Source of the DNA: a virus
Lineage: Duplodnaviria; Caudoviricetes
DNA length: 64,000 nt
Strand: one strand, 5' to 3'
Virus record (IMG/VR): IMGVR_UViG_3300028392_000067
Location: 512-64,511 of that record
The notes beneath the pieces were generated by a model. That model had not been told where the DNA came from. It saw only the letters and a list, made by a program, of their open reading frames with translations, and ran no database searches. Position numbers and translations under genes: made by a program. Below, piece by piece: positions 2,215-43,680 of this stretch (its first letter is position 1; each line of letters opens with the position of its first letter).

Positions 2215-2237
2215 TTTGCCAAATGTAAACCAACATA

Positions 2238-2466: not shown

Positions 2467-2526
2467 AAACAGTTTTAAACTAGAACGCACATTTATAAAT
2501 TAAAAAACTTTTTAAAATTAAATTTT

Positions 2527-2709: not shown

Positions 2710-2719
2710 ATTAAATTTT

Positions 2720-3043: not shown

Positions 3044-3063
3044 AAACAATTAAATTAAATTTT

Positions 3064-10173: not shown

Positions 10174-10339
10174 TCATATGTTTAGTTTTCCAATAATAAT
10201 ATCTTATTGCAAAAATACCTGAAACTATTGCTACCAACCCAGCAAACAAACTCACAAAAGGCTGTATGCTACTTACTGTAACTACGGCACTTAAAATACT
10301 AACTGTTGCAGATATACCAGCATGAGTCGGATGTGTCAT
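10157..10339 (-). CDS. small 2-TM protein (holin/antiholin-like)
   Basis: hydrophobic, basic C-terminus, first gene after promoter at 10353. Confidence 0.55.
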   Translation of the reverse strand: MTHPTHAGISATVSILSAVVTVSSIQPFVSLFAGLVAIVSGIFAIRYYYWKTKHMNDAKH

Positions 10340-10352
10340 GTCAATTTTTTCC

Positions 10353-10360
10353 CAAATATA
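10353..10360 (-). promoter_or_regulatory. TATATTTG promoter for lysis operon; same element before other leftward operons at 22882, 39386 and 46553 (variants at 16614, 49727, 53774, 62535)
   Basis: Bacteroidota -7 consensus 13-22 nt upstream of start codons. Confidence 0.65.
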
Positions 10361-10399
10361 AGATTAATTTATTTATATTATGTTAAATTAAACATTTTT

Positions 10400-10618
10400 T
10401 TACTCTGCCCATTTATGAGCAGGGCAAGCATCAGCACCTCTAGGGGTAAAAACTTTACCTTTTGTAAGGCAACCACATAAACCACATCTTGCTGGATTCT
10501 GTACCCAATGCTCACATTCAACACATGTTTGCAGTCTTTTTTCAGCCAACTCTTTTTGCTCCTCTGTTGGATTTAAAGCTGTCATGTAAGATATTAAAAT
10601 TTCTTTTACTTTGTTCAT
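10400..10618 (-). CDS. small Cys-rich (metal-binding) protein
   Basis: CVEC...CGLCGC...CPAHKW. Confidence 0.6.
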   Translation of the reverse strand: MNKVKEILISYMTALNPTEEQKELAEKRLQTCVECEHWVQNPARCGLCGCLTKGKVFTPRGADACPAHKWAE

Positions 10619-11478
10619 ATAAATAAATTTTTATAATCATTAATATTGCCCCAGTAAGGATGGATTTCTGTTAAATTATTTTTATCATAAATAGAATTAT
10701 GACTAGTAAAATGAATTCCATGATTAATATGAACTGGTTCATTTTGGCACTCCCATTGAATTCTTTTTAGCTTCTGTGTTTCAATCATTCCGCTATTAGT
10801 AACTAAAGCATTTGGCAATATTGACAAGCAATGCTCAATTGCATCATCAAATCTCATAGTCATTTGATGAAATGGTTCATCATTTTGTTTTCTTTTTTGC
10901 CATCCATCCTTACAAACGCCACCATAATTCATATTAGTCAAAACTTGACCTGATTCAAAATTGGGGTAATCAAAGTAACCTTTAGGGTACATCACATCAT
11001 GTTCCAAAAATGAAACATAATCATAATCACCCATAGTTTTAGCATTATAAAGACATTGCATTATTTGTAACAATTGATTTAAATGAGATTGGCTTTGATA
11101 CCAACTATTTATTTGATAAAATGGTACATTTGGCATATTTTCCCATGTGCATATTACTATATCTGCTACCCCTATGCTTGCATCTTTAATAGTATCAAGA
11201 GATTTGTATATAGCTGGCCAAATTGCATGATTATTATTATTTGAATAAAAAATGCCCAATTTTCGGTTTTTAGATTCTGGATATACAAATGTATCACCTT
11301 CTTTTACTTTGGCTTTAAAACCATCCTCAAATTCAATTTCAAGGTACTTTGTCTGACCTACTAATGGATCACCAATAATATCATTAGAAGCTCTAACAAC
11401 TAATTTATCACTTACTACCATTTTTTGTATCTTATTAGTACAATTTGCCCCACCATAAGTGGCTTTTGATATTATCAT
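10615..11478 (-). CDS. SUEL-like lectin domain fused to GT-A-like glycosyltransferase
   Basis: N-terminal ATYG...ASNDIIGDPLVGQTKYL; FLEHDVMY metal-binding motif. Confidence 0.55.
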   Translation of the reverse strand: MIISKATYGGANCTNKIQKMVVSDKLVVRASNDIIGDPLVGQTKYLEIEFEDGFKAKVKEGDTFVYPESKNRKLGIFYSNNNNHAIWPAIYKSLDTIKDASIGVADIVICTWENMPNVPFYQINSWYQSQSHLNQLLQIMQCLYNAKTMGDYDYVSFLEHDVMYPKGYFDYPNFESGQVLTNMNYGGVCKDGWQKRKQNDEPFHQMTMRFDDAIEHCLSILPNALVTNSGMIETQKLKRIQWECQNEPVHINHGIHFTSHNSIYDKNNLTEIHPYWGNINDYKNLFI

Positions 11479-12407
11479 AACAATACTGATTTTTTTTCTA
11501 CTCGCTGAATATATTCATAATACTTTTTGGATGCTGTTCCATCTTTTATTTTCAAATTTTGATTGTAAGGCAATCTATTCATAAATTCTGCTTTATAGAA
11601 TAATCCATCAGAAGATGTAGTTACACCTGCATTATGCAATATGTTTAATCTATCATAATCGTTTTCAGAACTAGTCCCCCATGCAAACTCTAAATCTGGA
11701 TGACAAACTGTTTCTTTGCCTAATTTCCAACCATTCCAAAGAACGGCCCACATATCTGCGCACCATATTTGTAATTCGTGGTATTGGTTATCTCTAGCTT
11801 TTTTTGTGTTGCTTAGTTCAGTAATATCTTTGTATAACTTTTCGCAATCCCTTTCTACATTATACCAAAATTCTGCATTAATACCTTTCATTAAATACTG
11901 GGCTCCGATTGAATTAAGTTCATTATCTTTTATAATTGACTCGTCTATGCCTACTATTTCACACATCTTATCCATTATGTCTTGGCCTTTGCTTAAAATA
12001 TAGCTATGGGCAATATACCATCTTGTATCTGATCCATACCATTTATCATCTGTCAAGAATTGTTTCCAATCAATTGGTTTAGTGAATATTATGTCGCAAT
12101 CATGGTAAAATATTGCTTCATTTTCTAATTCTGGATTCGCCTCAAAATGTTGTTTTAATATGTTTGGGCGAATGGATGATATGTAATGTTTAATGGCCCT
12201 TGTATCATCATAAAAAAAGAATCTTGCAGGATATTTTTGAGTTAATTTTACCCACTCTACAGGTATTACATTATTTATTTTCCAACATACTATATCAATA
12301 TTATTGGGATTTATACCCATATCCATAAAGTTGTTGACTAACACTTCTACTTGCCAAGCATAAAATAAAGATGTTGGCTGTGCACAGATAAATCTGAGAT
12401 TTTTCAT
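11475..12407 (-). CDS. GT-A glycosyltransferase resembling peptidyl-Ser/Hyp O-glycosyltransferases (GT95/GT96-like)
   Basis: YAWQ, SIRP, FYHDCDIIFTKP (DxD) and WCADMW motifs in the same order as recalled for HPAT/SERGT1. Confidence 0.6.
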   Translation of the reverse strand: MKNLRFICAQPTSLFYAWQVEVLVNNFMDMGINPNNIDIVCWKINNVIPVEWVKLTQKYPARFFFYDDTRAIKHYISSIRPNILKQHFEANPELENEAIFYHDCDIIFTKPIDWKQFLTDDKWYGSDTRWYIAHSYILSKGQDIMDKMCEIVGIDESIIKDNELNSIGAQYLMKGINAEFWYNVERDCEKLYKDITELSNTKKARDNQYHELQIWCADMWAVLWNGWKLGKETVCHPDLEFAWGTSSENDYDRLNILHNAGVTTSSDGLFYKAEFMNRLPYNQNLKIKDGTASKKYYEYIQRVEKKSVLL

Positions 12408-12410
12408 AAA

Positions 12411-12788
12411 TTAATGGTGTTTATACGATTTTTCTTCTATTAGTTCTGAACCATACTTTTGGTTAATTTGCTTTTTAACTATGGCTCTGACATCATTTAA
12501 TTGGTAAACTTCTCTAGCCAATTCAACAAACTTTTCGCCAAAATAACTTTTATGCTCACAATCTCTTATGTCATCCTCTACTTTCCATAATTTTTTGTTA
12601 ATATCATAAAGTTCTTGAGTGAATGGATCTGTTAATGTTTCAGGGTGTTTTCTGTTTAAAGCATTTTTAATTATTTTCCATTCTTTTTCAATGTTTACAA
12701 GCTTTTCAGCATCATGTATAAAAAGCTTTTTTATGGTTAGGATAGTATATTTATCTACCACTTCACCTATACTTACTTCTATTTTCAT
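12411..12788 (-). CDS. DUF6165-like helical protein
   Basis: SIGEVVDK.TIL.IK ... LWKVEDDIR ... ND.R..K..IN...S..IEEKSY. Confidence 0.7.
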   Translation of the reverse strand: MKIEVSIGEVVDKYTILTIKKLFIHDAEKLVNIEKEWKIIKNALNRKHPETLTDPFTQELYDINKKLWKVEDDIRDCEHKSYFGEKFVELAREVYQLNDVRAIVKKQINQKYGSELIEEKSYKHH

Positions 12789-12792
12789 ATGG

Positions 12793-12851
12793 TAAAGGTA
12801 ATAATTTTATTAATATTTATTTAATTTAATTAAATTAATTATATAGCTTTG
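12793..12851. promoter_or_regulatory. divergent promoter pair with central 18-bp palindrome
   Basis: TAGCTTTG (+, 12844), TACCTTTA (-, 12793), palindrome 12821-12838. Confidence 0.55.
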
Positions 12852-12873
12852 TGGAAACCAAAACAAATAACCT

Positions 12874-13068
12874 ATGAACTCACTTGAATTTGCCTATTGG
12901 CTACAAGGTTTTTTTGAAATATCAAAAATATCTAATTTACAATCACTAGATGAAACACAGGTACAAATCATTAAAGAACACTTAGATTTAGTTTTTGAAA
13001 AGAAAACATACACTTCTATGGGATATAGTGGTACTTGTGGCATATTTGTAAATCCAAACAATAAATAA
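12874..13068 (+). CDS. small conserved phage protein
   Basis: FAYWLQGFFE...QVQIIKEHLDLVF motif. Confidence 0.6.
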   Translation: MNSLEFAYWLQGFFEISKISNLQSLDETQVQIIKEHLDLVFEKKTYTSMGYSGTCGIFVNPNNK

Positions 13069-14438
13069 TGCCGACAAGTTATCCGTTATATAAAGATTCA
13101 ATTAGAAATTGGGTTTTACAAAATATACCATTAGATGCTAAAATACTAGATATTGGTGCTGGATGTGGCACTTATTCAGATTTATTGCGTGGTTATGGTT
13201 ATAAAATAGATGCAGTAGAAATATGGAAACCATATATAGATAAATATGAATTAAAGAAAAAATATGACGTAGTTTATCATAAAAACATACTTGCGATAGA
13301 TTTTGTTATACTTGACAAGTATGATTTTTTTATTTTAGGAGATGTATTAGAGCATTTGACAGCAGAGGAAGGGAAATCATTAATATTATTTCTAAAACAA
13401 AATAACAAAAAATACATTGTTGCAGTACCATACCAAATGGAACAAGGTGAGCATGAGGGGAATACACATGAAACCCATTTACAGCCAGACTTAACGCCAG
13501 ATATAATGAAGCAAAGATACCCTGAACTTGAGCTTTTATATGGTAATGAGTTTTATGGTTATTATACAAATAAAAAAGTAAAACATGAAAAAGCCTATGT
13601 ACTTTATGCTGATGAGTCTTATTTGGATCTTGTGGTTAGTTGTTGTAATTCCATTAGAAATTATAGTGATATTCCTATTTGGATTTATTTACTTAATTCT
13701 AAAATTAAAATAAGTGTAAGAAATACGCAAACTATAAATTGGGAATGTGATGTAAGACATTTAAAAAATAGGAATGAATATATTAACCGACAGGATAAAC
13801 AAATCTATAAGTTACTTATTGAAAGGCCTAAAATAGTAGCTCATGCACTAGAAAATTATGCAGAAACGGTTGCATATATTGATACAGATAGTATAGCAAC
13901 AAAATATGTTGATAGCATTTTTGATTATTTTAATCCCGATTCTGACCATCCTTATTTTGTAGAAGGTATTTATGACTATTTGCATTTAAATGGCAGAGGT
14001 GGAGCTGAAACAAGGGAAGATATGTCAACTACATTAGAAGCACCAATATGTGATTTATTTGGTATTAACCAATATGTTAGGCAAAGGTACAGGCAAACAG
14101 GTTATTTTGTAGCAGGACAAAAATGTATTGATTGGTTACAGGAATGGGCATGGATGTGTCAAAATCCAAAAGTAATTAATAACCATTCTTGGTATGCTCC
14201 ATTCCATGAAGAAACAATAGCAAACGCATTATTATGGAAATATAACCAACAAAATGGATTGCCATACTGTTATATTAATGGGTTGCATGATAAACTAGAA
14301 TATAAAAAACATGAATATTTTATTAAAGATTGGCAAAGGGTGCCATTAGAAAAAAACCATTTATTTTATCATGGAGAAAAAAATATAAATAAACTAAATC
14401 AATTTAATGAAAATATTATTTTTAGCCCCACATCTTAG
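13068..14438 (+). CDS. class I SAM methyltransferase fused to GT-A-like glycosyltransferase
   Basis: ILDIGAGCG and GDVLEH; C-terminal YIDTD (DxD) and HEETIAN. Confidence 0.75.
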   Translation: MPTSYPLYKDSIRNWVLQNIPLDAKILDIGAGCGTYSDLLRGYGYKIDAVEIWKPYIDKYELKKKYDVVYHKNILAIDFVILDKYDFFILGDVLEHLTAEEGKSLILFLKQNNKKYIVAVPYQMEQGEHEGNTHETHLQPDLTPDIMKQRYPELELLYGNEFYGYYTNKKVKHEKAYVLYADESYLDLVVSCCNSIRNYSDIPIWIYLLNSKIKISVRNTQTINWECDVRHLKNRNEYINRQDKQIYKLLIERPKIVAHALENYAETVAYIDTDSIATKYVDSIFDYFNPDSDHPYFVEGIYDYLHLNGRGGAETREDMSTTLEAPICDLFGINQYVRQRYRQTGYFVAGQKCIDWLQEWAWMCQNPKVINNHSWYAPFHEETIANALLWKYNQQNGLPYCYINGLHDKLEYKKHEYFIKDWQRVPLEKNHLFYHGEKNINKLNQFNENIIFSPTS

Positions 14439-16422
14439 TACAGGTGGTTGCCCTCAATTTATACTTAAAAGAATTCAAGCCCTAGGTGAATATACCGATA
14501 ATGAATATTATGTAGTTGAATATCAATGTCATAGTTTAGATTTTGTAGTTCAGCGCAATGCCATAAAAAGTTTACTAGTAGAAAACTTTACTACTTTGTA
14601 TGAAGATAAAATGGAATTATTTAAGATAATTGAAACGTGGAAACCAGATATTATTCATATAGATGAACCATCAGAAAGATTAGATAGGGAAATGGTAACT
14701 AAGCTATATTCTAATAATAGAAAATATAGAATAGTTGAGACCTGTCATGATGTGTCATTTAATCCTGATAATGATAAATTATTCCACCCTGATTTATACA
14801 TGTTTTGTAGTCCATATCATGAACAAACATTTGCTAATATGGAATCTAAATTTGTAACAATACAATATCCTATAGATAAACAAGAATTTAATGCAGAAAA
14901 AACTGGCAACCATGTTGTTAATGTAGGATTGTGGACTCCAGGAAAAAATCAAGCCGAGGGGATAGAAATTGCTCGCAAGTACCCTAATTTTATATTTCAT
15001 TTTATTGGTAACCAAGCTGGGAACTTTAAAGAATATTGGGAACCTTTGATGAAAGATTTACCTAAAAATGTAAAAGTATGGGGAGAGAGAAAAGATGTAG
15101 ATACTTTTATGAAAGGAGCTGATATATTTATGTTTAATTCTACGTGGGAGTGCAATCCTTTAGTTTTGCGCGAAGCCATAAGCTATGGTTTGCCTATTAT
15201 AGCTCGTAATTTGCCTCAATATGGTGATATGTTTACTAAATATTTACAGCCAATAGATACTGATCTAAATACTATAGAAGCTAATTATGAAATACCTACA
15301 GATAATACCACACCAATATTTTCTTTTAAACATGAAACAGCTTATAAAAAGTTATTAGAATTGCCAATTCATAAACAATCTGTAAAAATTACACAGCATT
15401 TTGTGGATGGCCCATTCTTAGAAATCAAAGGTGTTTCTGATAGTAATTTTAAAGTTCAATTTTTAGATGAAAAAGGTAGTATTGCTTATGAAAATACAAT
15501 AAAATCAAACCATTGGGTAAGATTAGATAGAAAATGGTTTACAAAATGGACTACAAAGGTTTGGCAGGATGGTTATTTAATTTATAAAAACACCCTAAAT
15601 TTGACAAATAAAAGGGTTTTAATAGTTTTGGATAGTAAATCCCTGGGAGATACAATTGCATGGTCAGGATATGCCTTAGAATTCCAAAAAAAGCATAATT
15701 GCAATGTAGTATTGTCCACTTTTTGGAATAAAATACTGGACTATCCTGAATTAGAATTAATAGAGCCAGGCACATCTATTGATTGTTATGCTTTATATCG
15801 TATTGGATGGTTTTGGGATGATAATAAAGAGCCTGTAAAATGCAATATAATACCATTACAACAAGCTGCTAGTAATATACTTGGTTTAGAATTTAAAGAA
15901 GTTAAACCTAGGCTTAAAACCAATAATGAAATACTTGGCAATAAAGTTCCTGATTATATTGCAATTGCTACAAATTCAACAATGGAATGTAAGTTTTGGA
16001 CTAGAGAAGGATGGCAACAAGTTATAAATTATCTATATGATTTAGGATATAAAAATATAGTTAATGTGTCTAAAGAAGATAACCCCTTTGACAATTGTTA
16101 TAAAATAAGTGATACGTCTATAGAAAACACAATGAAAGTAATTAAAGGAGCTAAATTGTTTATTGGTTTATCTAGTGGCTTATCTTGGTTATCATGGGCT
16201 TTGAATCAGAAGGTAGTTATGATTTCTAACTTTACTGAATCTGACCATGAATTTGATTGTTATAGAGTTACCAAGCCTGATGTATGTAATAGCTGTTGGA
16301 ATGATCCTAATATTAAGTTAGATCCATATTGGAACTGGTGTCCTAGGAATAAAAACTTTGAATGTCAAAAATCAATAACAGCAGATATGGTAATAGAACA
16401 GATAAAAAAAGCTAGTATTTAA
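14407..16422 (+). CDS. GT4-like domain fused to Aah/TibC-like (autotransporter O-heptosyltransferase family) glycosyltransferase
   Basis: HLSTGG and ECNPLVLREA (GT-B EX7E); SKSLGDTIAW, GLSSGLSWLSWAL, four-Cys CNSCW..WCP..FEC iron-finger-like motif. Confidence 0.8.
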   Translation: MKILFLAPHLSTGGCPQFILKRIQALGEYTDNEYYVVEYQCHSLDFVVQRNAIKSLLVENFTTLYEDKMELFKIIETWKPDIIHIDEPSERLDREMVTKLYSNNRKYRIVETCHDVSFNPDNDKLFHPDLYMFCSPYHEQTFANMESKFVTIQYPIDKQEFNAEKTGNHVVNVGLWTPGKNQAEGIEIARKYPNFIFHFIGNQAGNFKEYWEPLMKDLPKNVKVWGERKDVDTFMKGADIFMFNSTWECNPLVLREAISYGLPIIARNLPQYGDMFTKYLQPIDTDLNTIEANYEIPTDNTTPIFSFKHETAYKKLLELPIHKQSVKITQHFVDGPFLEIKGVSDSNFKVQFLDEKGSIAYENTIKSNHWVRLDRKWFTKWTTKVWQDGYLIYKNTLNLTNKRVLIVLDSKSLGDTIAWSGYALEFQKKHNCNVVLSTFWNKILDYPELELIEPGTSIDCYALYRIGWFWDDNKEPVKCNIIPLQQAASNILGLEFKEVKPRLKTNNEILGNKVPDYIAIATNSTMECKFWTREGWQQVINYLYDLGYKNIVNVSKEDNPFDNCYKISDTSIENTMKVIKGAKLFIGLSSGLSWLSWALNQKVVMISNFTESDHEFDCYRVTKPDVCNSCWNDPNIKLDPYWNWCPRNKNFECQKSITADMVIEQIKKASI

Positions 16423-16598
16423 CTAGCTTCTTCTTCTGTTTGTTTAGCTTTTTCAATTTCTAAAGCTGCATTTTCAATAAATAATAAAATATCCTTACCA
16501 TACTTCATTGGTATTTGTTCATTAGCATAATTCATTAATGCTTGAACTTGTTCAGGATTTAATGATGGTACTGGTAATTGCTTTGGTTCTTGATTCAT
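16419..16598 (-). CDS. small protein downstream of tail fibre (59 aa, not in track)
   Basis: ATG 16598 to TAA 16419; own TAAATTTG promoter at 16614. Confidence 0.5.
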   Translation of the reverse strand: MNQEPKQLPVPSLNPEQVQALMNYANEQIPMKYGKDILLFIENAALEIEKAKQTEEEAS

Positions 16599-16648
16599 AA
16601 AATTTTATTTTTACAAATTTAGTATAATTAATTTAATTAAAAAAAATA

Positions 16649-16972
16649 TTATACTTCTTGTGTAATAGGCCCATCTACAAAAACAATGTTTAATTTACTT
16701 GCTGCCCAATTGTAAGCCCAAGCATTTGAGTTAGGGTCGCTTCCCCAAGAATCATAATCTGCTCCTGAAATATCTAGGTTTGCAGTGATAATGTTTTGGA
16801 AGGTTTCTCCCCCTTGCTCGTCTGTTACTACTGATTGTAACTCGTAGTAAAAAGTAGCTATACCTTCTAATGGTACTAATGAAAGATTATCTCCAATAGA
16901 CCTTAATGTAAAGTTGGTAGCTTGTTTTGTTTCTCCGTTAATCCACAATGTAAGTGGTTGAATTTTTGCCAT
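16649..16972 (-). CDS. tail-fibre-associated protein
   Basis: 107 aa directly after the fibre gene. Confidence 0.5.
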   Translation of the reverse strand: MAKIQPLTLWINGETKQATNFTLRSIGDNLSLVPLEGIATFYYELQSVVTDEQGGETFQNIITANLDISGADYDSWGSDPNSNAWAYNWAASKLNIVFVDGPITQEV

Positions 16973-16982
16973 TTTATTTATT

Positions 16983-19900
16983 TTATTTATTTTTTAATTG
17001 TTCTATTTCTTCTTTTAATTCTTTAATTGCATTTACTAATGCTGCATATATAGCATCTTTTTCTAATCCTAGATATTTAACATCAGTTCCAAATTCTTTT
17101 ATAGCATCAGGCATAATTTCTTGTACTTCCTGAGCTATAAATCCAAATTGAACACCTTGGTTTATTTTATCATCTTTCCAATGGTAGCTTACAGGTCTAA
17201 GTTGTAGTATTTCTTTTAAGCCATAAGAAAGAGAAGTGATATTATCTTTTAATCTATTATCTGATGGGTTTGTGCTTGTCAATACCCCTGCGTTAGAATA
17301 AACTAATCCTGTTCCTAAAACTCCTGAAGTTATTTGACCTGTTGTTAAACCTGCACCATTTGAAATATTACCTGAAAAATACCCTGCACCAACTACGTTT
17401 AATGCATAGTTAACTACTCCTGTAAATGCACCATTCGTAAAGGTTGGGTTTATATATAAAGCACTTAATACATCACTGTTTGCTGCTGCTACTAAAGTAG
17501 ATGAAACTACCATTCCCCTTGCTATCGCAGAAGCAGCGGTTGTAGAACCAGATACCTCTAGTTTAGCTGACGGTGCAGTTAATCCAATACCTACGTTTCC
17601 TGCATTTGATTGCATAGCGATATTACCACCGTATGAAACGTTACTTTCACTTGTTTGTAATAAGAAATATCTATTAGCAAGAGTGGCAGCTCCAACATAA
17701 GATATATCAAATTTTTGTGGTTGTGTGTTTTCATTTGATGCTACTGCAAATATGCTAATTGAAGTAGTTGAAGTTTTTGCCGAAGATGCTTGGGCAACTA
17801 TTGCAGGATTTGTTCCATTGGCTAATACTGTTAATGCAGAACTAAATGTAGATGTTGTAGTCCCAATATTAACGTTTCCACTTACCGCTAATCCATTAGT
17901 AGGTGCTGCCGTTGATGCTGAATATCCAATAGCAGCATTTCCGTTTACTTGTAACTTACTACCCACAGTAAGAGTACCTAGTCCTGTATTTCCACTACCA
18001 TTTACATACAAAGCGTTTGCACCACTTAATGTCTTAAATACAATACCACCTGAACTACTATTATAAACAGTTGCATCTAAACTACCTGATGTAAATTGGA
18101 ATTGTAAGTTTGCACTACCACCTGTGCAGGTTAAAGCGGTTTGTGTACCTGTACCGCTCCCAAACGTTCCGCCATTTGCAGATAGGTTTGTTGCAAAAGT
18201 AACTCCATCATCACGAACATATAAAGTATTAGTACCAGCACTATTTGTTAAGTATAATTGATATGTTGATGAAGTCGTTCCTGAACCTTTAATCTGCAAT
18301 TTACCGCTACCATCGGTTGTAGTACCAATTAATACGTTGCCACCTTGTGTAATAGACATTTTAACAGTAGATCCACCTGATTCAATGAATGTTAATTGTT
18401 TATCATCTACGGCAACAGCATCTACTGCAATTCTCCAAGTTTGTGTTGAGTTTCTATTTGTTAAAGCTAAAGCACTACTTAATGTAGCTGATTCTTGCAA
18501 TGATAAAACTGTACCTGATGTAGTTGTTGTTGAATTAAATACTCCTGCTCCAGCTACCGCCAAACCATTTGTAGGAGCAGCAGTAGAAGCTGAGTAACCT
18601 ATTGCAGCGTTTCCGTTTACTTGTAAGGTTGAGCCTACTGTTGTTGTTCCTAATCCTAATGTTCCTGATGTTGTAAGAAGCATTTGCAATGTTGAACCAT
18701 TATTTGCAGAAAAAGCTAATCTTCCACTATTTGCTCTTATACAATAATCATTTATTGCACTATTTGTAATTAAGTCTCCTGCTGCTGCTGCAATACCTAT
18801 TGAACCATAGTCAGTACCATTTCTTCTAAATAATGAATAACTTAAACCACTTGTAGGATTTATAACAACTACGTTACCATTGAATATTGCACTACCTACT
18901 GTATTAATTGCCCAATTTGTAACTCCCGTGAAAGAACCGTTTGTGAAAGTTGGACTAATATATAAAGCACTTAATACATCACCATTAGCAGCAGCAGTTA
19001 ATGTAGGAGTGAAACTTAATCCTCTAGCAATTGCACCTGATGCTGTAACACTATTATTTACTAATACACCTGTTGTTAAATCTTGTATAGAACTATTACC
19101 TATGGTAGTTGAACTTGTGAATTTAACCACTGTATTTGTTGTACCACTCACTGATACTGAGGTACCAGATGTTCCACTTGTTCCTGTGGTACCACTAGTT
19201 CCAGTTGTACCTGATGTACCACTAGTTCCAGTTGTACCTGATGTACCACTAGTTCCAGTAGTTCCACTAGTACCTGTAGTTCCTGATGTTCCAGAAGAAC
19301 CGCTTGTTCCTGTGGTTCCACTAGTCCCTGATGTTCCTGAAGCACCACTAGAACCAGATGTTCCTGAAGTACCTGATACACCAGATGTTCCACTTGTTCC
19401 ACCTGTACCATCAGTTCCAGAGGTTCCTTGATTTACATAAGATATTGACCAATATTGACCATTAGCAAGTGTATAAGAAGCATTACCATTAAGAAAATTT
19501 ATTGTTATTGAATATACACCAAGACCAGGAACAGCAGTGCTAGTGGCTAGATATGTTGCATATACATTAGTTCCACTAGAACCAGATGTACCAGCTGAAT
19601 AATATAATATTTGAATAATTGAACCTACGCTAATATTATTTACCCAATTTGAAATATCATTACCATTTAAATCATTTTGATATAATTGTAAAAGAGTTCC
19701 ATATTGTAATGTACTAGATGATGAAACATTAAAATTACCATTTACAAAATAAATAGGAGCATTATTCCTAATAAACAATATACTATTACCACCTAAACCA
19801 GTAGTTCCTGATGTACCAGAGGTTCCTGATGTACCTGTAGTTCCTGATGTACCTGATACTCCACTTGTTCCACTAGTGCCTCTAGTTCCGCTTGTTCCAC

Positions 19901-21260
19901 TAGTACCACCTGTACCATTGGTACCGCTAGTTCCTGATGTACCACTAGATCCACTTGAACCAGTAGTTCCAGAGCTTCCAGATGTAGCACTTGTTCCACT
20001 AGTACCTGTCGTACCACTTGTTGCAGATGTTCCTGATGTACCAGAAGAACCACTTGTTCCACTATTACCACTTGTTCCACTAGTACCTGAAGGAGCTGTG
20101 AAAGTGGTTTGTGCATATGAATAAAATGTATTACCTTCTGTATAAAAAGTAGCTGTTTTGCTACCTGTACCATTGTTTTTACCAATAACTTTAAAATATA
20201 ATCTATCAGTTACATTTACAGCTCCTCCAATCCAAAATGCATCAACATAAACTTGTTGAGGGAATGAATCATCTAAAATTAAAACTCTATTAGTAGTAAA
20301 TAATAATGTGGAAGTACCACCATTAGAATATTTATACATTTCTACATAAATATCCCAACCATTTGTTGTATTTAAGTTTTCAATATGTACTATAAATGCC
20401 CAGTTACCAGCAGGTATTGTTGTAAGTCCAGGCACCCCAGTATCAGTTGCAAATGTATCAAAAGTACCTGTAGCCCCCGCTGCTAATGTTAATGCTTGAG
20501 TTGTTTGTCCTGTAATTGTAGGAATAGGACTCCATTGTTTATATGTAGGTGAACCAATTGCACTATTTGTATTTAATGATTGATTCATCCAATATATCTG
20601 ACCACCACTAACACCATTTAAACCAGATGTACCACTAGTGCCACTTGTTCCACTTGTCCCACTAGTTCCACTGCTTCCACTTGTTCCTGTAGTTCCTGAT
20701 GAACCACTAGTACCTGTACTACCACTAGTTCCAGATGTTCCACTTGTAGCAGAAGTACCACTTGTTCCACTTGTCCCACCTGTTCCATTAGTACCACTTG
20801 TTCCTGAACTACCACTAGTTGCTGAAGTACCAGAAGTACCACTAGATCCGCTAGTACCTGTAGTCCCACTAGTCCCATCTGTTCCACTAGTTCCAGAAGA
20901 ACCTGCTGAACCAGAAGAACCAGTTCCACCACTTGTACCTGATGAACCTGAAGTTGCTGAAGTACCAGAAGAACCAGAAGTTCCACTTGTACTAGAACTA
21001 CCAGAGCTACCTGAACTACCACTAGTTCCAAAAGTTCCATTTATTCCTGAAGTACCAGACGTACCTGTTGTACCTGAAGTACCTGTTGTTCCGCTTGTGC
21101 CATTTGTACCACTTGTTCCATTAATACCACTTGTACCGCTAGTACCAGAAGTTCCTATAGTTCCAGAAGTATCTGCCGCCACTATTCCATTTACGGCAAC
21201 AAGAACTCCATTCTCATTTCTAAGCTTTAAATCTCCGCTAATTAAATTCTGAATTGCCAA
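16983..21260 (-). CDS. tail fibre with Gly-X-Y Ser/Thr repeats and C-terminal intramolecular chaperone (peptidase S74)
   Basis: (GTS)n blocks; GNVGIG..P..KL repeats; SDNRLK...GFIAQEV autocleavage domain; TTG start. Confidence 0.85.
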   Translation of the reverse strand: MAIQNLISGDLKLRNENGVLVAVNGIVAADTSGTIGTSGTSGTSGINGTSGTNGTSGTTGTSGTTGTSGTSGINGTFGTSGSSGSSGSSSTSGTSGSSGTSATSGSSGTSGGTGSSGSAGSSGTSGTDGTSGTTGTSGSSGTSGTSATSGSSGTSGTNGTGGTSGTSGTSATSGTSGTSGSTGTSGSSGTTGTSGSSGTSGTSGTSGTSGTSGLNGVSGGQIYWMNQSLNTNSAIGSPTYKQWSPIPTITGQTTQALTLAAGATGTFDTFATDTGVPGLTTIPAGNWAFIVHIENLNTTNGWDIYVEMYKYSNGGTSTLLFTTNRVLILDDSFPQQVYVDAFWIGGAVNVTDRLYFKVIGKNNGTGSKTATFYTEGNTFYSYAQTTFTAPSGTSGTSGNSGTSGSSGTSGTSATSGTTGTSGTSATSGSSGTTGSSGSSGTSGTSGTNGTGGTSGTSGTRGTSGTSGVSGTSGTTGTSGTSGTSGTTGLGGNSILFIRNNAPIYFVNGNFNVSSSSTLQYGTLLQLYQNDLNGNDISNWVNNISVGSIIQILYYSAGTSGSSGTNVYATYLATSTAVPGLGVYSITINFLNGNASYTLANGQYWSISYVNQGTSGTDGTGGTSGTSGVSGTSGTSGSSGASGTSGTSGTTGTSGSSGTSGTTGTSGTTGTSGTSGTTGTSGTSGTTGTSGTTGTSGTSGTSVSVSGTTNTVVKFTSSTTIGNSSIQDLTTGVLVNNSVTASGAIARGLSFTPTLTAAANGDVLSALYISPTFTNGSFTGVTNWAINTVGSAIFNGNVVVINPTSGLSYSLFRRNGTDYGSIGIAAAAGDLITNSAINDYCIRANSGRLAFSANNGSTLQMLLTTSGTLGLGTTTVGSTLQVNGNAAIGYSASTAAPTNGLAVAGAGVFNSTTTTSGTVLSLQESATLSSALALTNRNSTQTWRIAVDAVAVDDKQLTFIESGGSTVKMSITQGGNVLIGTTTDGSGKLQIKGSGTTSSTYQLYLTNSAGTNTLYVRDDGVTFATNLSANGGTFGSGTGTQTALTCTGGSANLQFQFTSGSLDATVYNSSSGGIVFKTLSGANALYVNGSGNTGLGTLTVGSKLQVNGNAAIGYSASTAAPTNGLAVSGNVNIGTTTSTFSSALTVLANGTNPAIVAQASSAKTSTTSISIFAVASNENTQPQKFDISYVGAATLANRYFLLQTSESNVSYGGNIAMQSNAGNVGIGLTAPSAKLEVSGSTTAASAIARGMVVSSTLVAAANSDVLSALYINPTFTNGAFTGVVNYALNVVGAGYFSGNISNGAGLTTGQITSGVLGTGLVYSNAGVLTSTNPSDNRLKDNITSLSYGLKEILQLRPVSYHWKDDKINQGVQFGFIAQEVQEIMPDAIKEFGTDVKYLGLEKDAIYAALVNAIKELKEEIEQLKNK
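19140..21170 (-). repeat. three blocks of 9-bp-periodic repeats encoding Gly-Thr/Ser-Ser (~20620-21170, ~19800-20090, ~19140-19430)
   Basis: visible in DNA and translation. Confidence 0.9.
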
Positions 21261-21261
21261 T

Positions 21262-21804
21262 TTAAACGTATTTAAATGTTGTTAAATTTTTATTTTGACC
21301 ATTTAATTTAGCTTTTAATGTAGTAGGCTTTAACCCCATTACAAAGGCAGCTTCATTAATACCAGTATAGTAAATACCAGTCGCTTCGTTTAAAACAATT
21401 TTAGATGTTTTTAATCTAGCTTTTCTTCCATTTTCAGCCCCACACATTTTTCCAGCATATCTGCCTCTTTCTCTCATTGCGTCATCAACTTTTCTTAATC
21501 CTGTATCAGAACAATGTTTTTGATTTTCTGAGGCTGTCATCCACTCCAAATTGCATCTTAAATTATTCAATTTATTTCCATCCATATGATTAACTTGAGG
21601 TTTATTTTCAGTATTTGATATATATGCATCAGCAACTAATCTATGAATTGAAAAATACTTATAATCACCTTTACCACAAAATAATTGGATTTGTTCATAA
21701 CCAGCATTGGTTACCTTAGATTTAAGAAACTTCATGGTTATAAGGCTAAAAACCCTTCCATCAAGTGTAATTAAATAGTTTTCAAACCCTTTTATCTGTT
21801 TCAT
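21262..21804 (-). mobile_element. NUMOD4-HNH homing endonuclease
   Basis: IKGFENYLITLDGRV; HRLVA...VNHMDGNKLNN...NLEW. Confidence 0.85.
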
Positions 21805-21809
21805 ATACT

Positions 21810-32438: not shown

Positions 32439-33008
32439 TTAACCTAAACATGATCCTGAAGCAGAACCTACAGCTCCTGTTGAACTATTATAATTATATA
32501 CACTATTAGCACCACCTGTAGGGAACACAATATCTAATACATAAGTATTAGGGAATGTAGTTGTTCCATATGGATCTGCATATAAATTTGGAGGAGGAGT
32601 AAATATATAACCAGGTAACCCATAAGCGGGTACTGATGGTAAAATACATATATCAGTAGCTCCTGTATTGCTAAAAACAAATCTATTAGAATAAAGAACA
32701 TATGGAGATACTGTTACAGTTCCTCCAGATAATAAACATTCTACATTTGTGGTTGTAGTAGTAGTTGAAGTTGTTGATGTAGTAGTAGTTGTAGCAGGCA
32801 ATATATTAAGAGTTAATGTATTAGTACATATACCTTGAGAAGTTACAAATATTTGAGTAGCTGCATCATTAGCGAAAACTGTCACTCCGACCAATAATTC
32901 ATTTAATGTTGCAACAGCAGGTGCTAATGTCCCAATATCTGCAGTTAATACAAAATCAGGGCCTAAATCTGCACCTTGGGATGGGTTTAATTTAACTAAT
33001 ATATACAT
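32439..33008 (-). CDS. virion-associated protein with poly-Thr linker, paralogous N-domain to 32162
   Basis: GPDFVL...FVTSQGICTN then ATTTTTSTTSTTTTTT. Confidence 0.6.
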   Translation of the reverse strand: MYILVKLNPSQGADLGPDFVLTADIGTLAPAVATLNELLVGVTVFANDAATQIFVTSQGICTNTLTLNILPATTTTTSTTSTTTTTTNVECLLSGGTVTVSPYVLYSNRFVFSNTGATDICILPSVPAYGLPGYIFTPPPNLYADPYGTTTFPNTYVLDIVFPTGGANSVYNYNSSTGAVGSASGSCLG

Positions 33009-33022: not shown

Positions 33023-36000
33023 TTAACACTGAGTTGGGTTAATTGTCAAATTGCCAATTGTTGATTTAAATGTTGTAGTTGAGCAACTTCCACCATAATA
33101 TACAAAATAAAATGTTCCTGATATTGCTGAACCATCACTATTTCTAATTACTGAAACAGTATTAGTTCCACCATCTGATAAACAACCACCATTTGCTACA
33201 AATTTAGCATAATCAATTGAATTCAAGAAAATTTCAGGTGTACTACCTATATTTGTACAATTAGATGAACCTGCTATTTGAATTCCTGTACCAATAGATA
33301 CGAATGGATTAGTTGTCGTAGTTGTAATTGGAGCTAATGTAGTTGTTGTAGTAGTAGATGTTGTGGTAGTTGTAGTCGGAGCTAATGTGGTTGTAGATGT
33401 AGTTGTAGATGTAGTTGTAATTGGAGATGATGTAGTTGTAGTTGTGCTTGTTGGATAATAAACAATTGCAATGCCACCATTATATGTACAATCAGAATAT
33501 CTATTAATTTCTTCCATTGCAATTATATACTTATTTGTATAAGAGTCAAATACACCATAAATACAAGGATTTCCATTATAAATTTGACCATCTGCTGCAG
33601 CACCATTATTCAATTGTTGTCTATAAGCATTTAATTTAGCTACAAAAAAAGCATTTGTATGATAAATAATACTTAATGGTTCAATACCATTTTGGCTTAA
33701 TCTACATACAACGCCCCTGTAATCATCTACAAAATAATCAGAGAAATTATTCCAAGCTAAACTAGTAGCTGCATCTCCTATACCATAATTACCTTCATAA
33801 TATTGAATCTTATTAATTAATTTATCTGTATTAGCTTGTAATGGGTTATTTGCACTATCCTTAATAATTTGAGTTAAAATAGGAACATTACCTACCTTAA
33901 ATTTTTGAAAAACTTTCAAATATCTATCTCGAACATGCAATCTCATTACATCACCAAAACTTCTATCATATTCATCAAAGTTTTCAAAATAAAAACTATT
34001 TGTACCATTTATATTAGTGTCAACTTGATAAGATTGACTAAATCTAATTAATGTAGGGAAATATACGTTTCTTGCATTTACATCAATAACAGACTGTCTT
34101 CCATTGCTATTCATCGTTAAATTATATGCATCATTAAAACTACTTTCAATAATTGAAATAGTCTGAGTTTGTAATATATTAACCTTCATTTTAAATATAG
34201 AATAATAAACACTTTGTCCATCTACTGCAACCCATGCTTTTGTATGAGCAGGTATAGTAATTTTTGTAGAACATACTAAAGTATCAGAATCTGTACCTTC
34301 TGTTCTTACAGTTGATAAAGTTTTAAATGTCTTTGTTGTAGAATCTACATAAACAATATAAAAATTAGGAATAACACTAGAAGTGGTTTTATCATAAGTA
34401 GCTCTAACACTAAAATCAATACTTAATAAAATAGTTCCAGATGTTTTATTCCAAAAAAATCCATTATCTGAAAAAGTAGGATAAGAAGCAGTATCTAATG
34501 GATATATTACATTATCTGTTTGACCAGTTATTAAATAATTATCATTACCATATGCGTAAGAATAATTTAAATTATCAGGATTCATTATTAATGAATGAAA
34601 AAGAAAAGAACTTATAGGTATTGTAACATTTTGATTACCAGCATTATAATCCCATAATGTTTGATAAAGTACATTTCTTTGTCTCCAAAATAAATCACCA
34701 TTTGTACCGCTAATAATAGCAGGAACACCAATTGGATCTGATGCAGATTGTGATTGTTCAAGTCCTATATGATATGCATTTTGAGTACCAGGATTACCAA
34801 TACCAAAACATTTATTAAATTCATAAAAAAACTTTTGACTAGCATCGGAATTTATAGAATAATTATATAAAAATATCTCATAATGCCTAAACCCAACATC
34901 ATTACTAAAATTAAAATTTGTTGGGTCTGCATCTACAGCATCCTGTGGATATTTAATTTTAATAAAATTACCTTGTCTTTGCCCAACTGTTGTTTCTACT
35001 AATCCTTCTGTACCTAATATTTCAAAATCAACTACATTTATAGAGGTAGGATTACCTAATGCATCATATCTTTTTAAAAATGTAATTCTATCTCCAGGCG
35101 TAAAAGCATAAGATACAACACTTGTAGATGAACTAAATTGTTTGTTATATTCAGCAATATTAGATATATCTATATATGCAAAAGATTCTAAATTATATGT
35201 AGAAGTAACATCATTTAATGATAAAGGACTTCTAAATGCATTATTACATATCCAAAACAATCTTTTATTATAAGTAGTATTATTTGATCTTACTACTTGA
35301 AAATATCTAGCTTCTAATGGAGGTCTATTTTTAATTTGCAAAAATGTTTGAGTAAATCTAGTTCCATTATTTTTATTAGTAGTAAATGTTGCTAATTTAT
35401 TTGTTTGTGTACCAATTGTTCTTCCTTGCCCATCAAAATATTGTATTCCATATTGATAACCAGAATCCCATGAATTAGCATAAACAGTATTATTTTCAGC
35501 ATTTGTTGCATAACTAATATATTTTACACCACTTGAATATAATGTAAAATCATTCGTATTTGACATTGTCAATATATTTCCAACCAATGATACTTGACTC
35601 CAATTATGACCATTCCCAACTAATCCAGCAGATATATCTGTTAAAATAGAAGAAACAGTTTTAGGACTTGTTAAATTTTGATATGTGTAACCAATATTAG
35701 TATAACTAGAATCTACTGCATTTATAACATATTGTCCAACAGGATTATTTAATGTAGTAACTTCACCATTAGTATTTGTACCAGTACCATATAAGTATAT
35801 TTTCAATATTTTACCAGTAGAACCACTATCTATACCATTACATGTAGCAAAAAATAAAAGTCCACAATAATCTTGAAAGAATGTTATTGGAACTGGTATA
35901 TTTAATGCTGGATTAGGAGTATATGATAATAAATTCATATTTGTTTTATTATACCCTTCAGTTATTCCTGAATATAATAAAGTATTACCATTAGCTAATT

Positions 36001-36961
36001 CAGCTGCATTTGCTTTTTGTGGAACCCAATCCTGTAATTGTGCTGTTTCTATAACATCAATCTGACCATAAATACTATCATTATAAAACTTATAAGTATA
36101 TATATCATTATCTAATATTTGATTATCAAATTTATTTAATTGTTTAATTAAATAAAAATCAGATATTACATTATTATTATCTTCTCTAAAAGCTAATTCT
36201 ATTGCTTTTACATCTTTATCACCAGTTGAAAATGAAATAGAAATCCTTGCATTTAAACTTAAATCAGGATTTGTTAAACTCAATGTATTTTGTTGAGGTA
36301 AGGGAACAATACTTCTAGAGCTCCATACAGATTTTTCATTATTTTGATAAACGAATCTATAACAAAATTGGTATAATGAATTTCTTAAATTATTTACAGT
36401 TACAATGGTATCATTTTCAAATGTAACTTTAGGTGGCATTACAGGAGGAGCTTTGGCTATTAGCAAATATTCCAACTTCCATGATGTACCATATGTATTA
36501 AGTAAATTTATACTTTTAGGTGGATTTAATCCATCATTAAAATATAAAATATCACCCTCATCATCCCTATAAAATATATTAACTGATAATACTTTATAAG
36601 ATGGATTAAAATTCAAAATATCAACACCATTACTATCTGTTTTGCTTTGTAAAACTTTAGTAATTTTATTTGTATTTAAATCTAAATATAAAATATTATC
36701 ATAACCATTGCTATTCCAAACAAAATAATATGCTCTATTTCTTATTTTATCAGGATAAAAACCAATAACTTTATTTGTACCAGATGGTAGAGTATAAGCA
36801 ACATTTGTATTACCCAATATATTAGATACTACTCTATCTTGACCTACTCCTTGAGCATCTTTAGTTATGTTTAAAGCATCAATATAGTCATTGTTATCAA
36901 TTCTATAATCTGCTACATCTAAATTTAATTTACCATTAAATGGGTTGTTTATTATTGGCAT
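33023..36961 (-). CDS. muzzle/nozzle (tail stabilization) protein with mucin-like C-terminal extension
   Basis: FNGKLNLD...YIDALNI, YFNDGLNPPK.IN, YEGNYGI, YFVD..RG.V.RL; ~45-aa Thr-rich stretch near the C-terminus. Confidence 0.75.
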   Translation of the reverse strand: MPIINNPFNGKLNLDVADYRIDNNDYIDALNITKDAQGVGQDRVVSNILGNTNVAYTLPSGTNKVIGFYPDKIRNRAYYFVWNSNGYDNILYLDLNTNKITKVLQSKTDSNGVDILNFNPSYKVLSVNIFYRDDEGDILYFNDGLNPPKSINLLNTYGTSWKLEYLLIAKAPPVMPPKVTFENDTIVTVNNLRNSLYQFCYRFVYQNNEKSVWSSRSIVPLPQQNTLSLTNPDLSLNARISISFSTGDKDVKAIELAFREDNNNVISDFYLIKQLNKFDNQILDNDIYTYKFYNDSIYGQIDVIETAQLQDWVPQKANAAELANGNTLLYSGITEGYNKTNMNLLSYTPNPALNIPVPITFFQDYCGLLFFATCNGIDSGSTGKILKIYLYGTGTNTNGEVTTLNNPVGQYVINAVDSSYTNIGYTYQNLTSPKTVSSILTDISAGLVGNGHNWSQVSLVGNILTMSNTNDFTLYSSGVKYISYATNAENNTVYANSWDSGYQYGIQYFDGQGRTIGTQTNKLATFTTNKNNGTRFTQTFLQIKNRPPLEARYFQVVRSNNTTYNKRLFWICNNAFRSPLSLNDVTSTYNLESFAYIDISNIAEYNKQFSSSTSVVSYAFTPGDRITFLKRYDALGNPTSINVVDFEILGTEGLVETTVGQRQGNFIKIKYPQDAVDADPTNFNFSNDVGFRHYEIFLYNYSINSDASQKFFYEFNKCFGIGNPGTQNAYHIGLEQSQSASDPIGVPAIISGTNGDLFWRQRNVLYQTLWDYNAGNQNVTIPISSFLFHSLIMNPDNLNYSYAYGNDNYLITGQTDNVIYPLDTASYPTFSDNGFFWNKTSGTILLSIDFSVRATYDKTTSSVIPNFYIVYVDSTTKTFKTLSTVRTEGTDSDTLVCSTKITIPAHTKAWVAVDGQSVYYSIFKMKVNILQTQTISIIESSFNDAYNLTMNSNGRQSVIDVNARNVYFPTLIRFSQSYQVDTNINGTNSFYFENFDEYDRSFGDVMRLHVRDRYLKVFQKFKVGNVPILTQIIKDSANNPLQANTDKLINKIQYYEGNYGIGDAATSLAWNNFSDYFVDDYRGVVCRLSQNGIEPLSIIYHTNAFFVAKLNAYRQQLNNGAAADGQIYNGNPCIYGVFDSYTNKYIIAMEEINRYSDCTYNGGIAIVYYPTSTTTTTSSPITTTSTTTSTTTLAPTTTTTTSTTTTTTLAPITTTTTNPFVSIGTGIQIAGSSNCTNIGSTPEIFLNSIDYAKFVANGGCLSDGGTNTVSVIRNSDGSAISGTFYFVYYGGSCSTTTFKSTIGNLTINPTQC

Positions 36962-43134: not shown

Positions 43135-43680
43135 TTATACACAAGGTGAACAAGAACTTGTTACTGTAGCAACACTAGTTCCATTAGTTAATACAGAATA
43201 ATATTGTCCTCCAAATGAAATATAACCAGTACCTATTGGTGCAAATGAAAAGTCTATACTTGTTAACTGAGTAGAACTACAGAAGGTAGCACTATTACCT
43301 GTTACGGAAAAAGTACCAAAAGCAGGAGAACCTGAACAAGCATCAGCTCCACTATTACCATATTTTATAGTGTCTGAAAATGGAATAATTGTTGTTGTAG
43401 TTGTTGTAGTAGGTATATAAAAACTTATAGCTCCTGTTGAACTAAAAGTAATAACATATTTTACACTTTTATTTGTCAATAATTGAACTGAATAATAATT
43501 ATTTGCTAAACCAAATACTGGTTGTGTTAATCTACTATCACCATATAATAAATTACTAGTAGATAAAGTATCAGTTGTAGCATAAACCACTCTTCCGCCT
43601 TGAGATACACCTTCAGCAGTTGCTTCTGCACCTGTTGAATAAGGATTAAGGGATAATAAATATCCTATTGAATTTGCCAT
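43135..43680 (-). CDS. head-associated protein with poly-Thr linker and Cys-bracketed C-domain
   Basis: PTTTTTTTII then GNSGADACSG...CSPCV. Confidence 0.55.
   Translation of the reverse strand: MANSIGYLLSLNPYSTGAEATAEGVSQGGRVVYATTDTLSTSNLLYGDSRLTQPVFGLANNYYSVQLLTNKSVKYVITFSSTGAISFYIPTTTTTTTIIPFSDTIKYGNSGADACSGSPAFGTFSVTGNSATFCSSTQLTSIDFSFAPIGTGYISFGGQYYSVLTNGTSVATVTSSCSPCV

Follow-up and report, generated by a model that had tools for sequence, protein, structure and literature searches.

A TibC/Aah-family glycosyltransferase cluster beside a Gly-Thr-Ser collagen-like tail fibre gene: a candidate protein O-glycosylation cassette in aquatic phages

We analysed a 64,000-nucleotide stretch of DNA from an uncultured freshwater phage (hereafter the window, meaning the whole stretch), which covers 64,000 of the 64,511 bases of the IMG/VR record IMGVR_UViG_3300028392_000067, rated about 98% complete. 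The window has a G+C content of about 30% and carries genes for a large terminase, a portal, virion structural proteins, a primase-helicase and a GH108 endolysin. The system in question is a cluster of genes for five soluble proteins of 287, 310, 125, 456 and 671 amino acids (aa), among them a two-domain glycosyltransferase (GT) of the TibC/Aah family, which adjoins a tail-fibre gene with a collagen-like repeat (Table 1). The cluster is laid out as a minus-strand set, which reads from the gene for DUF6165 through those for the 310-aa and 287-aa proteins, and a divergent plus-strand set formed by the genes for the 456-aa (13068-14438) and 671-aa (14407-16422) proteins; a 107-aa open reading frame (ORF) and the 1425-aa fibre gene converge on the latter. 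An earlier reading of the bare sequence (the original prediction) had placed four adjacent GT genes just downstream of a Ser/Thr-repeat fibre. The genes do lie at the positions it gave, and the four are adjacent to the fibre gene, but the simple order does not hold, as the GT4-TibC and fibre genes run towards each other with the 107-aa ORF between them; a fifth gene inside the cluster, that for DUF6165, had been missed. The six cluster proteins all lack a hydrophobic stretch of transmembrane strength, with a maximum Kyte-Doolittle value of 1.27 versus 2.62 in a neighbouring 189-aa protein.

Table 1. Features of the window discussed in the text (positions are those of the window; aa, amino acids)
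Feature	Position	Strand	Evidence
287-aa protein: SUEL/rhamnose-binding-lectin-like segment (about residues 1-70) and Y domain (residues 72-287)	10615..11478	-	
310-aa GT-A glycosyltransferase, predicted (phrog_4417)	11475..12407	-	phrog_4417 2.6e-67; AF2; Foldseek
DUF6165 protein, 125 aa, small helical	12411..12788	-	PF19662 1.7e-12
Class-I SAM methyltransferase domain, N-terminus of 456-aa protein	13068..13592	+	Homologue profile
GT-A domain X, C-terminus of 456-aa protein, predicted	13593..14438	+	Alignment, AF2, Foldseek
GT4 (GT-B) domain of 671-aa protein	14407..15420	+	PF00534 4.8e-14; PF13692 1.1e-9
TibC/Aah-family (BAHT) domain of 671-aa protein, by score and motifs	15421..16422	+	TIGR04414, PDB 4rap
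107-aa ORF directly downstream of fibre gene	16649..16972	-	No Pfam, PHROG or NCBIfam match
1425-aa tail fibre with C-terminal S74 chaperone, five collagen-like blocks and non-repeat domains	16983..21260	-	Pfam, PHROG
Collagen-like blocks of the fibre	20994-21164, 20598-20948, 20025-20087, 19782-19979, 19158-19427	-	
189-aa virion-region ORF with TTTTTSTTSTTTTTT tract, possible further substrate	32439..33008	-	
1312-aa virion structural protein, Thr/Ser tracts at residues 1172-1220, possible further substrate	33023..36961	-	phrog_14478 6e-57
181-aa ORF with TTTTTTT tract, possible further substrate	43135..43680	-	

The enzyme cluster and its collagen-like neighbour

The 671-aa protein had been described as a fusion of a GT4 and an Aah/TibC-like GT, and this description stands. 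Its GT4 domain scores 52.7 bits against PF00534 (gathering score 26.4), and its C-terminal domain scores 231.8 bits against TIGR04414, above the curated cut-off of 200 (1.2e-68; residues 343-668 aligned to positions 24-373 of the 374 in the profile), and matches the TibC structure in the Protein Data Bank (PDB 4rap) at 1.2e-39. The same protein matches the wider GT9 family (PF01075) at 4.2e-8, and the TIGR02193 model for heptosyltransferases of lipopolysaccharide (LPS) yields 27.8 bits against a cut-off of 185.3. We further compared the functional residues of TibC, as named in passages of PMC4358343, between this domain and 27 phage representatives. The catalytic Asp-110 is aligned in an LGD motif and is Asp in 23 of the 27 representatives (Asn in two, a gap in two); the iron-finger cysteines Cys-339, Cys-342, Cys-358 and Cys-370 are all aligned in the window and are Cys in 22-23 of the 27, the rest being gaps from truncated domains. 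Mutation of the sugar-binding residues Thr-226, Lys-230, Arg-286 and Trp-305 abolished or largely diminished the activity of TibC according to the same passages (PMC4358343), and three of these four, Thr-226, Lys-230 and Trp-305, have their equivalents in the window domain. Overall, the conserved TibC residues are kept in 20-24 of the 27 representatives, with the remainder being gaps apart from Asn at D110 (two) and Ser at T226 (three). The position that governs stereoselectivity, Pro-300 of TibC and Ser-294 of AAH (passages of PMC4358343), is Ser in the window domain. By score and motifs, we class this domain as a true member of the TibC/Aah (BAHT) family, and it is likely to be a protein-initiating O-glycosyltransferase.

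The fibre on the other side of the 107-aa ORF matches tail-fibre PHROGs, the Peptidase_S74 chaperone family PF13884 (2.7e-18) at residues 1333-1387 (window positions 17100-17264) and the collagen family PF01391 (2.5e-38) over eight stretches. It contains 115 Gly-X-Y triplets in seven runs, in which Thr takes the X position 85 times and Ser 18 times, Ser takes the Y position 83 times and Thr 15 times, and Pro is absent. The several hundred repeat residues of the original prediction are thus present (345), but what it took for a generic Ser/Thr tract reads instead as a proline-free Gly-Thr-Ser collagen-like repeat.

The enzymes proposed earlier for elongation and methylation also have real domains behind them. 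The methyltransferase-plus-GT architecture of the 456-aa protein is borne out: as a single sequence its class-I S-adenosylmethionine (SAM)-dependent methyltransferase domain scores only 21.7 bits against PF13489, below the Pfam cut-offs, but a profile of eight homologues finds PDB 3cc8 at 2.7e-8, and PF13489 is matched by all eight (best 1.7e-9). Its C-terminal domain, which we term X, has invariant D97-x-D99, E207, H260, G261 and K263 residues (within-domain numbering of the alignment); its AlphaFold2 (AF2) model has a mean predicted local distance difference test (pLDDT) value of 86.6 and, in a Foldseek search of the PDB, lies nearest to GT6 enzymes, namely GTA/GTB and alpha-1,3-GalT (6e-8; template-modelling (TM) score about 0.5). 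The 310-aa protein has an invariant DxD motif (D103-C-D105 of the alignment) and 3013 relatives, of which the 120 listed have no Pfam domain and are named only 'hypothetical protein'. Its AF2 model (pLDDT 94.3) retrieves WbbM, the UGGT catalytic domain, LgtC, glycogenin and GT6 enzymes from the PDB (E values of 2e-7 to 1e-5, TM 0.4-0.5), and LP65 Orf49 (TM 0.73) along with viral GT8 proteins from BFVD. Both GT-A models reach a Foldseek probability of 1.00 to LgtC, glycogenin, UGGT and GTA/GTB, at TM 0.4-0.57, and on its model the 310-aa protein is assigned a GT-A fold of the retaining GT8/GT24/GT6 kind. The proposal that the cluster has two different peptide-initiating GTs finds no support, with the 310-aa enzyme being a GT8-like GT-A and only the TibC-like domain belonging to a family known for protein initiation. 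The original prediction had likened the 310-aa protein to GT95/GT96, the plant peptide O-glycosyltransferases (HPAT, SGT1); none of our searches brought up a profile or solved structure of either family, and the best structural matches were to GT8, GT24 and GT6.

Domain fusions tie several of these activities together. Single polypeptides in other phages have the architectures methyltransferase-X-GT4-TibC, X-GT4-TibC and GT4-TibC-X-PIG-L, with X in two different orders; the fused methyltransferases are of either the class I or the FkbM type, and, of 19 representative ORFs with a TibC-like domain that were scanned, 14 have a GT4 domain fused on its N-terminal side. A PIG-L de-N-acetylase is fused behind the X domain in five loci (L046, L050, L054, L057 and L047), which hints at an N-acetylated sugar as part of the glycan in those phages. 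We also observed a 2-oxoglutarate-Fe(II) oxygenase (PF13640, prolyl-hydroxylase-like) adjoining TibC-like genes in five clusters (e.g., L031:10997-11635), where the fibres are proline-free.

The small DUF6165 protein is a specific companion of TibC-like enzymes: in 68 of 80 loci (the best 80 of 396 viral relatives) a TibC-like domain is found within 10 kb, often in an abutting gene. A profile search of the PDB with DUF6165 gave only a coiled-coil chance match, no paper using the term DUF6165 was found in our literature search, and a complex prediction of GT4-TibC with DUF6165 scored 0.00, which carries no weight either way. The 287-aa protein had been read as a lectin plus a GT. Its lectin-like part matches PDB 5h4s at 2.4e-10 over residues 27-74, in which the GDP..G..KYL motif is aligned, and CSL3 at 5.3e-5; there is no Pfam match at E<=0.01. 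SUEL-type lectin domains carry disulfide-forming cysteines, and the segment has a single Cys. For its supposed GT part, the Y domain, Pfam, PHROG and NCBIfam gave no match, a PDB profile search retrieved only chance matches, hhalign comparisons to two GT-A profiles gave non-significant probabilities of 0.4% and 1.2%, and the Atlas offered a lead to GT2 at 0.91 only, with no model there. Y has 229 relatives at E<=0.001; among 27 long ones, 19 carry a GT2 domain ahead of it. In the alignment a FLEHD motif and two His residues are invariant, which would fit a putative GT-A.

Linkage of TibC-like domains to Gly-[Ser/Thr]-Ser genes across phages

Evidence bearing on the substrate comes from gene neighbourhoods. 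We collected 65 viral-contig loci with a TibC-like domain 34-81% identical to that of the window, together with 80 control viral loci fetched by an arbitrary 15-mer and equal in total length, and searched their stop-to-stop ORFs for collagen-like genes, defined by at least 15 Gly-X-Y triplets, and for a strict type in which at least 70% of X is Ser+Thr and at least 50% of Y is Ser. A collagen-like ORF lies within 10 kb in 46 of the 65 TibC loci and in none of the 80 controls (Fisher p = 8e-23), and the strict Gly-[Ser/Thr]-Ser type in 39 versus 0 (p = 3e-18), bearing out the co-occurrence suggested as a check of the original prediction. Nearly all of the neighbouring repeats are Gly-[Thr/Ser]-Ser without Pro, with gaps to the enzyme gene down to 15-90 bp. 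Grouping the 65 loci and the window at 70% identity, with two sets of identical loci merged, leaves 24 clusters, of which 18 are positive within the locus, 20 when two long contigs are searched whole, and 18 for the strict type; the comparison by clusters gives p = 8e-18. In the two seemingly negative clusters gained in this way, the Gly-Thr-Ser genes lie at other places on contigs of 90 kb and 116 kb. Where enough sequence was present, we found no relatives with the GTs but without the repeats, a case that had been named in advance as refuting the original prediction. A side finding on the 90-kb phage contig G009 (of locus L030) is a single open frame of 5216 aa with long Gly-Thr-Ser runs at about 43.2-46.5 kb (loci L329 and L338), which has more than 150 triplets in a 3-kb sample.

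In the reverse direction, we retrieved viral collagen-like genes by a GGN7 DNA pattern that is blind to composition, obtaining 62 contigs with flanks whose repeats are mostly G-P-Q, G-A-T, G-P-T, G-N-T or G-Y-S. TibC is nearby in two of the three Gly-[Ser/Thr]-Ser contigs versus none of the 59 others (p = 0.0016). When six further Gly-[Ser/Thr]-Ser records were searched whole the total became four of nine, an uneven comparison, as only the flanks of the 59 others were examined. By comparison of genomes, a link between the TibC-like domain and collagen-like genes of the Gly-[Ser/Thr]-Ser type is supported in phages of diverse kinds. The reverse set also brought to light a second class of viral collagen-like genes with an aromatic X and Ser at Y (Gly-Tyr-Ser, Gly-Trp-Ser), which reaches 167 triplets, is seen in the contigs L191/L192, L199, L225, L268, L269 and L278, with four tandem genes in one contig, and has no TibC-like gene in the flanks searched.

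The pairing extends to contigs with myovirus sheath and tube genes, contigs of more than 300 kb, one contig of a metagenome-assembled genome (MAG) and a cultured virus, the Microcystis phage Mel-JY01 (PP395634.1). In the latter, an open frame of 1016 aa (2-3052, plus strand), in which we counted 202 Gly-[T/S]-Ser triplets, is found 1.7 kb upstream of the gene for a GT4...TibC protein of 1226 aa that is annotated as 'methyltransferase FkbM'. The record instead has minus-strand coding sequences at 1-651 and 739-2298 and a plus-strand one at 2519-3052 over this frame; the fibre gene looks mis-annotated and probably runs across the start of the record. A neighbouring 'cytidylyltransferase-like' gene of Mel-JY01 was considered as a source of heptose, and its weak PF01467 match makes no case for this. 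Our literature search found no paper on Mel-JY01.

Turning to the surroundings in the window, Pfam scans of 50 of its proteins recovered no integrase, no sugar-nucleotide synthesis gene, in line with what had been noted before, and no autotransporter family; the neighbour of the TibC-like domain is instead the collagen-like fibre. Megablast of positions 10000-17000 against 50,697 phage records returned no match, and a terminase search of genome contigs found two MAG contigs only, which gives no basis for a host name. The 107-aa ORF is retained at the same place in eight close relatives (L003-L010). One lake metatranscriptome library has small contigs that match parts of three genes exactly, namely those for DUF6165, the 107-aa ORF and the fibre, and no contig over the GT4-TibC gene; as DNA carry-over is possible, this is weak evidence of expression. 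A promoter and terminator scan of 10000-22000 was uninformative, with 51 promoter-like sites versus 65 in shuffled sequences. A 13-pair inverted repeat (16404-16434) that takes in the stop codon of the 671-aa gene lies between the convergent sets and may be a two-way terminator. Of the four other virion-region proteins with poly-Thr tracts claimed earlier, three were found (Table 1). The surroundings of the tracts in all three are Cys-rich (in the 1312-aa protein, its C-terminal 170 residues), which is unusual for virion proteins assembled in the cytoplasm.

Several further genes of the window are recorded here as observations. Homing-endonuclease-like genes lie near both ends of the lysis-GT-fibre stretch (7242-7838 and 21262-21804, both minus strand), one of the I-HmuI/NUMOD and one of the HNH/NUMOD4 type, and immediately upstream of the fibre gene lies the HNH one. 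Between the endolysin and the GT cluster, a 189-aa protein is encoded (9604-10173, minus strand) that is anchored to the membrane by its N-terminus and may be a lysis protein; it is retained at that place in five TibC clusters. Elsewhere, 38025-38657 (minus strand) weakly matches PF25702, the crAss-like tail ring protein 2 (1.3e-5, below cut-off), and there are a C5 cytosine DNA methylase (56938-57768, plus strand; 7.4e-36) and one tRNA-Gln gene (58537-58609, plus strand).

A candidate O-glycosylation cassette and the competing explanations

What the analysis establishes are the domain identities, the folds and the linkage of the genes, both statistical and physical; from these we infer a substrate, an order of action, the sugars and an effect on the fibre. 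We consider it reasonably probable that the cluster is a cassette by which the phage O-glycosylates proteins in the cytoplasm, above all its own collagen-like tail fibre. A nucleotide sugar made by the host would supply the first sugar, which the TibC-like domain would attach to hydroxyls in the Gly-Thr-Ser triplets as the fibre assembles or beforehand, most likely to the Y-position Ser, because the known TibC/Aah family members modify Ser. The fused GT4 domain would add the next sugar, the 310-aa GT-A enzyme and the X domain would lengthen the glycan or introduce branches, and the methyltransferase joined to X would cap it, with DUF6165 acting as an accessory of the TibC-like enzyme. The lectin-bearing 287-aa protein could bind the attached sugars and perhaps add or tailor further ones; the lectin domain of mucin-type GalNAc-transferases likewise binds sugars already attached.

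A number of points weigh against this proposal. All of its support is association, and no glycan has been observed on any such fibre; moreover, the known TibC/Aah members act on beta-helical autotransporter repeats and not on collagen-like chains. Within the domain itself, Arg-286 is replaced by Thr, and Arg is found in only four of the 27 phage representatives, which bears on the donor and even on the activity, such that the sugar need not be heptose. Furthermore, the stretch aligned to the beta-hairpin thumb of TibC (about 258-280) is shorter, with several gaps, and on that alignment the dodecamer that handles TibA may not form. Both features argue against simply naming the protein a heptosyltransferase or a dodecamer. 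On the side of the survey, four of the 24 TibC clusters are without a collagen-like gene (contigs of 6-36 kb, of which the two checked are 4% and 16% complete), TibC was not seen in five of the nine Gly-[Ser/Thr]-Ser fibre records (all five incomplete, at 11-76%), and the TibC loci were found by six peptide patterns from the query, which places very distant relatives outside the sample. Finally, the hypervariable regions of aquatic phages collect GT genes and fibre genes alike, and there passages of PMC7029224 read them as modifiers of the host O-chain.

That last observation leads to the main competing explanation, namely that the enzymes remodel an envelope glycan of the host (LPS core or O-chain, capsule or glycolipid), for instance to block superinfection, and reside near the fibre gene only because the host-recognition region carries both as cargo. 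Enzymes of the GT4 and GT8-like GT-A kinds typically serve in making LPS and glycolipids, the next-best NCBIfam matches of the GT4 domain are glycolipid glucosyltransferases (far below cut-offs), GT9, the wider superfamily of TibC, is the family of LPS heptosyltransferases, and the GTs in the fibre region of pelagimyophages have been read in this manner (in passages of PMC7029224). However, envelope remodelling leaves the tie to one repeat composition unexplained, given that TibC is near none of the 59 other collagen-like contigs; the domain scores above the protein-glycosylating cut-off and not the LPS heptosyltransferase one, and the cluster has no membrane-embedded Gtr-like component. As no integrase was found among the Pfam-scanned proteins, lysogenic conversion is unlikely too, and on balance we regard remodelling of the host envelope as unlikely.

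It is also conceivable that the TibC-like and Gly-[Ser/Thr]-Ser genes merely move together in a mobile fibre module, with the acceptor being another phage or host protein, such as the poly-Thr virion proteins. Such hitch-hiking could draw on the Thr/Ser tracts of the three other virion-region ORFs, on the two contigs whose collagen-like genes lie well beyond the 10-kb TibC flanks and on the TibC loci without a repeat gene. Yet the pairing persists down to 34% enzyme identity and across gene orders, orientations, genome sizes and tail genes, a distance over which simple linkage would be expected to decay; this counts against co-movement as the explanation, which we judge quite unlikely. To our knowledge, no BAHT-family member acts on DNA. 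That the enzymes glycosylate the phage DNA (hypermodified bases) against restriction is highly improbable: this is a common role of phage GTs (passages of PMC12619734 and PMC10202952), and the genome does encode a C5 cytosine methylase, but among the scanned proteins of the window Pfam detects neither a hydroxymethylase nor any other gene for base modification, and the repeat-specific co-occurrence would be left unexplained.

Returning to glycosylation of the fibre as the favoured reading, we tentatively put forward a further possibility, about which we are considerably more doubtful. O-glycosylation of the Ser/Thr residues in each Gly-Thr-Ser triplet might allow a proline-free chain to form and hold a collagen triple helix, in the role that falls to hydroxyproline in animals and to glycosylated Thr in Riftia. 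The cassette, with its TibC-like starter, DUF6165, extenders and methyl cap, would then be a self-contained collagen-maturation system that has spread as a module through many kinds of aquatic phages, and the glycan might set the stiffness and protease resistance of the fibre and perhaps the host range.

Parallels and implications

The closest precedent for the proposed cassette is offered by the TibC-TibA and Aah-AIDA-I pairs of E. coli (TIGR04414; PDB 4rap/4rb4; passages of PMC4358343), the enzymes of which are of the same family as the phage domain by score and motifs. In both, a soluble cytoplasmic enzyme is encoded beside a long, repetitive, Ser-rich surface protein that could be modified many times, as predicted on the phage side. 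However, the phage partner is a collagen-like Gly-Thr-Ser fibre as opposed to a beta-helical autotransporter, and the phage enzyme, unlike TibC, is fused to a GT4 domain and accompanied by further GTs, a methyltransferase and DUF6165, which implies an oligosaccharide rather than single heptoses.

Viral precedents are likewise available. Mycobacteriophage GTs decorate their own virion proteins at the C-termini of the capsid and tail-tube subunits (Freeman et al. 2023, Cell Host Microbe, as related in passages of PMC12619734); the likeness lies in phage-encoded GTs acting on the phage's own virion, whereas the target proposed here would comprise hundreds of repeat positions of a collagen-like fibre, with an initiating enzyme of the BAHT family. 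The A064R protein of chlorovirus PBCV-1, described in passages of PMC9614988, combines two rhamnosyltransferase domains with a methyltransferase and extends an N-linked glycan of the capsid protein. As proposed for the phage, a virus-encoded soluble GT-GT-methyltransferase combination builds and methyl-caps a virion-protein glycan in the cytoplasm; nevertheless, the domain order differs, A064R belongs to a eukaryotic virus with N-linked glycans, and the likeness is one of design. In mimivirus, L230 hydroxylates Lys and glucosylates the hydroxylysine on collagen-like proteins such as L71 (again per passages of PMC9614988), so that one virus encodes both a collagen-like protein and its glycosylating enzyme, as we propose for the phage. 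The phage repeat, however, is almost devoid of Lys or Pro, and its enzyme family is unrelated. Among cellular proteins, the BclA protein of the Bacillus anthracis exosporium and the cuticle collagen of Riftia reportedly have collagen-like Gly-X-Thr repeats with O-linked sugars, and in Riftia glycosylated Thr is said to take the stabilising place of hydroxyproline. The phage fibre differs from both in having Ser and not Thr at the Y position, and those are cellular proteins with other enzymes.

Virus-encoded glycosylation of virion proteins is already known, as are BAHT enzymes. No paper linking BAHT enzymes to collagen-like phage fibres was found in a search that left about 1.7 million PubMed Central (PMC) articles and most subscription journals outside its reach. 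If the proposal is true, BAHT, a family of enzymes associated with bacterial virulence, has a second and much wider use on the collagen-like fibres of phages, and virion glycosylation extends from a few actinobacteriophages to many aquatic phages. This would change the annotation of the fibre-region GTs of marine and freshwater phages, which are now read as modifiers of the host O-antigen or of DNA. Further, one enzyme and one repeat peptide would make a simple pair for studying how sugars stabilise proline-free triple helices and could find use in the making of glycosylated collagen-like materials. DUF6165 thereby gains its first functional setting, and the cultured phage Mel-JY01 makes the hypothesis directly testable.

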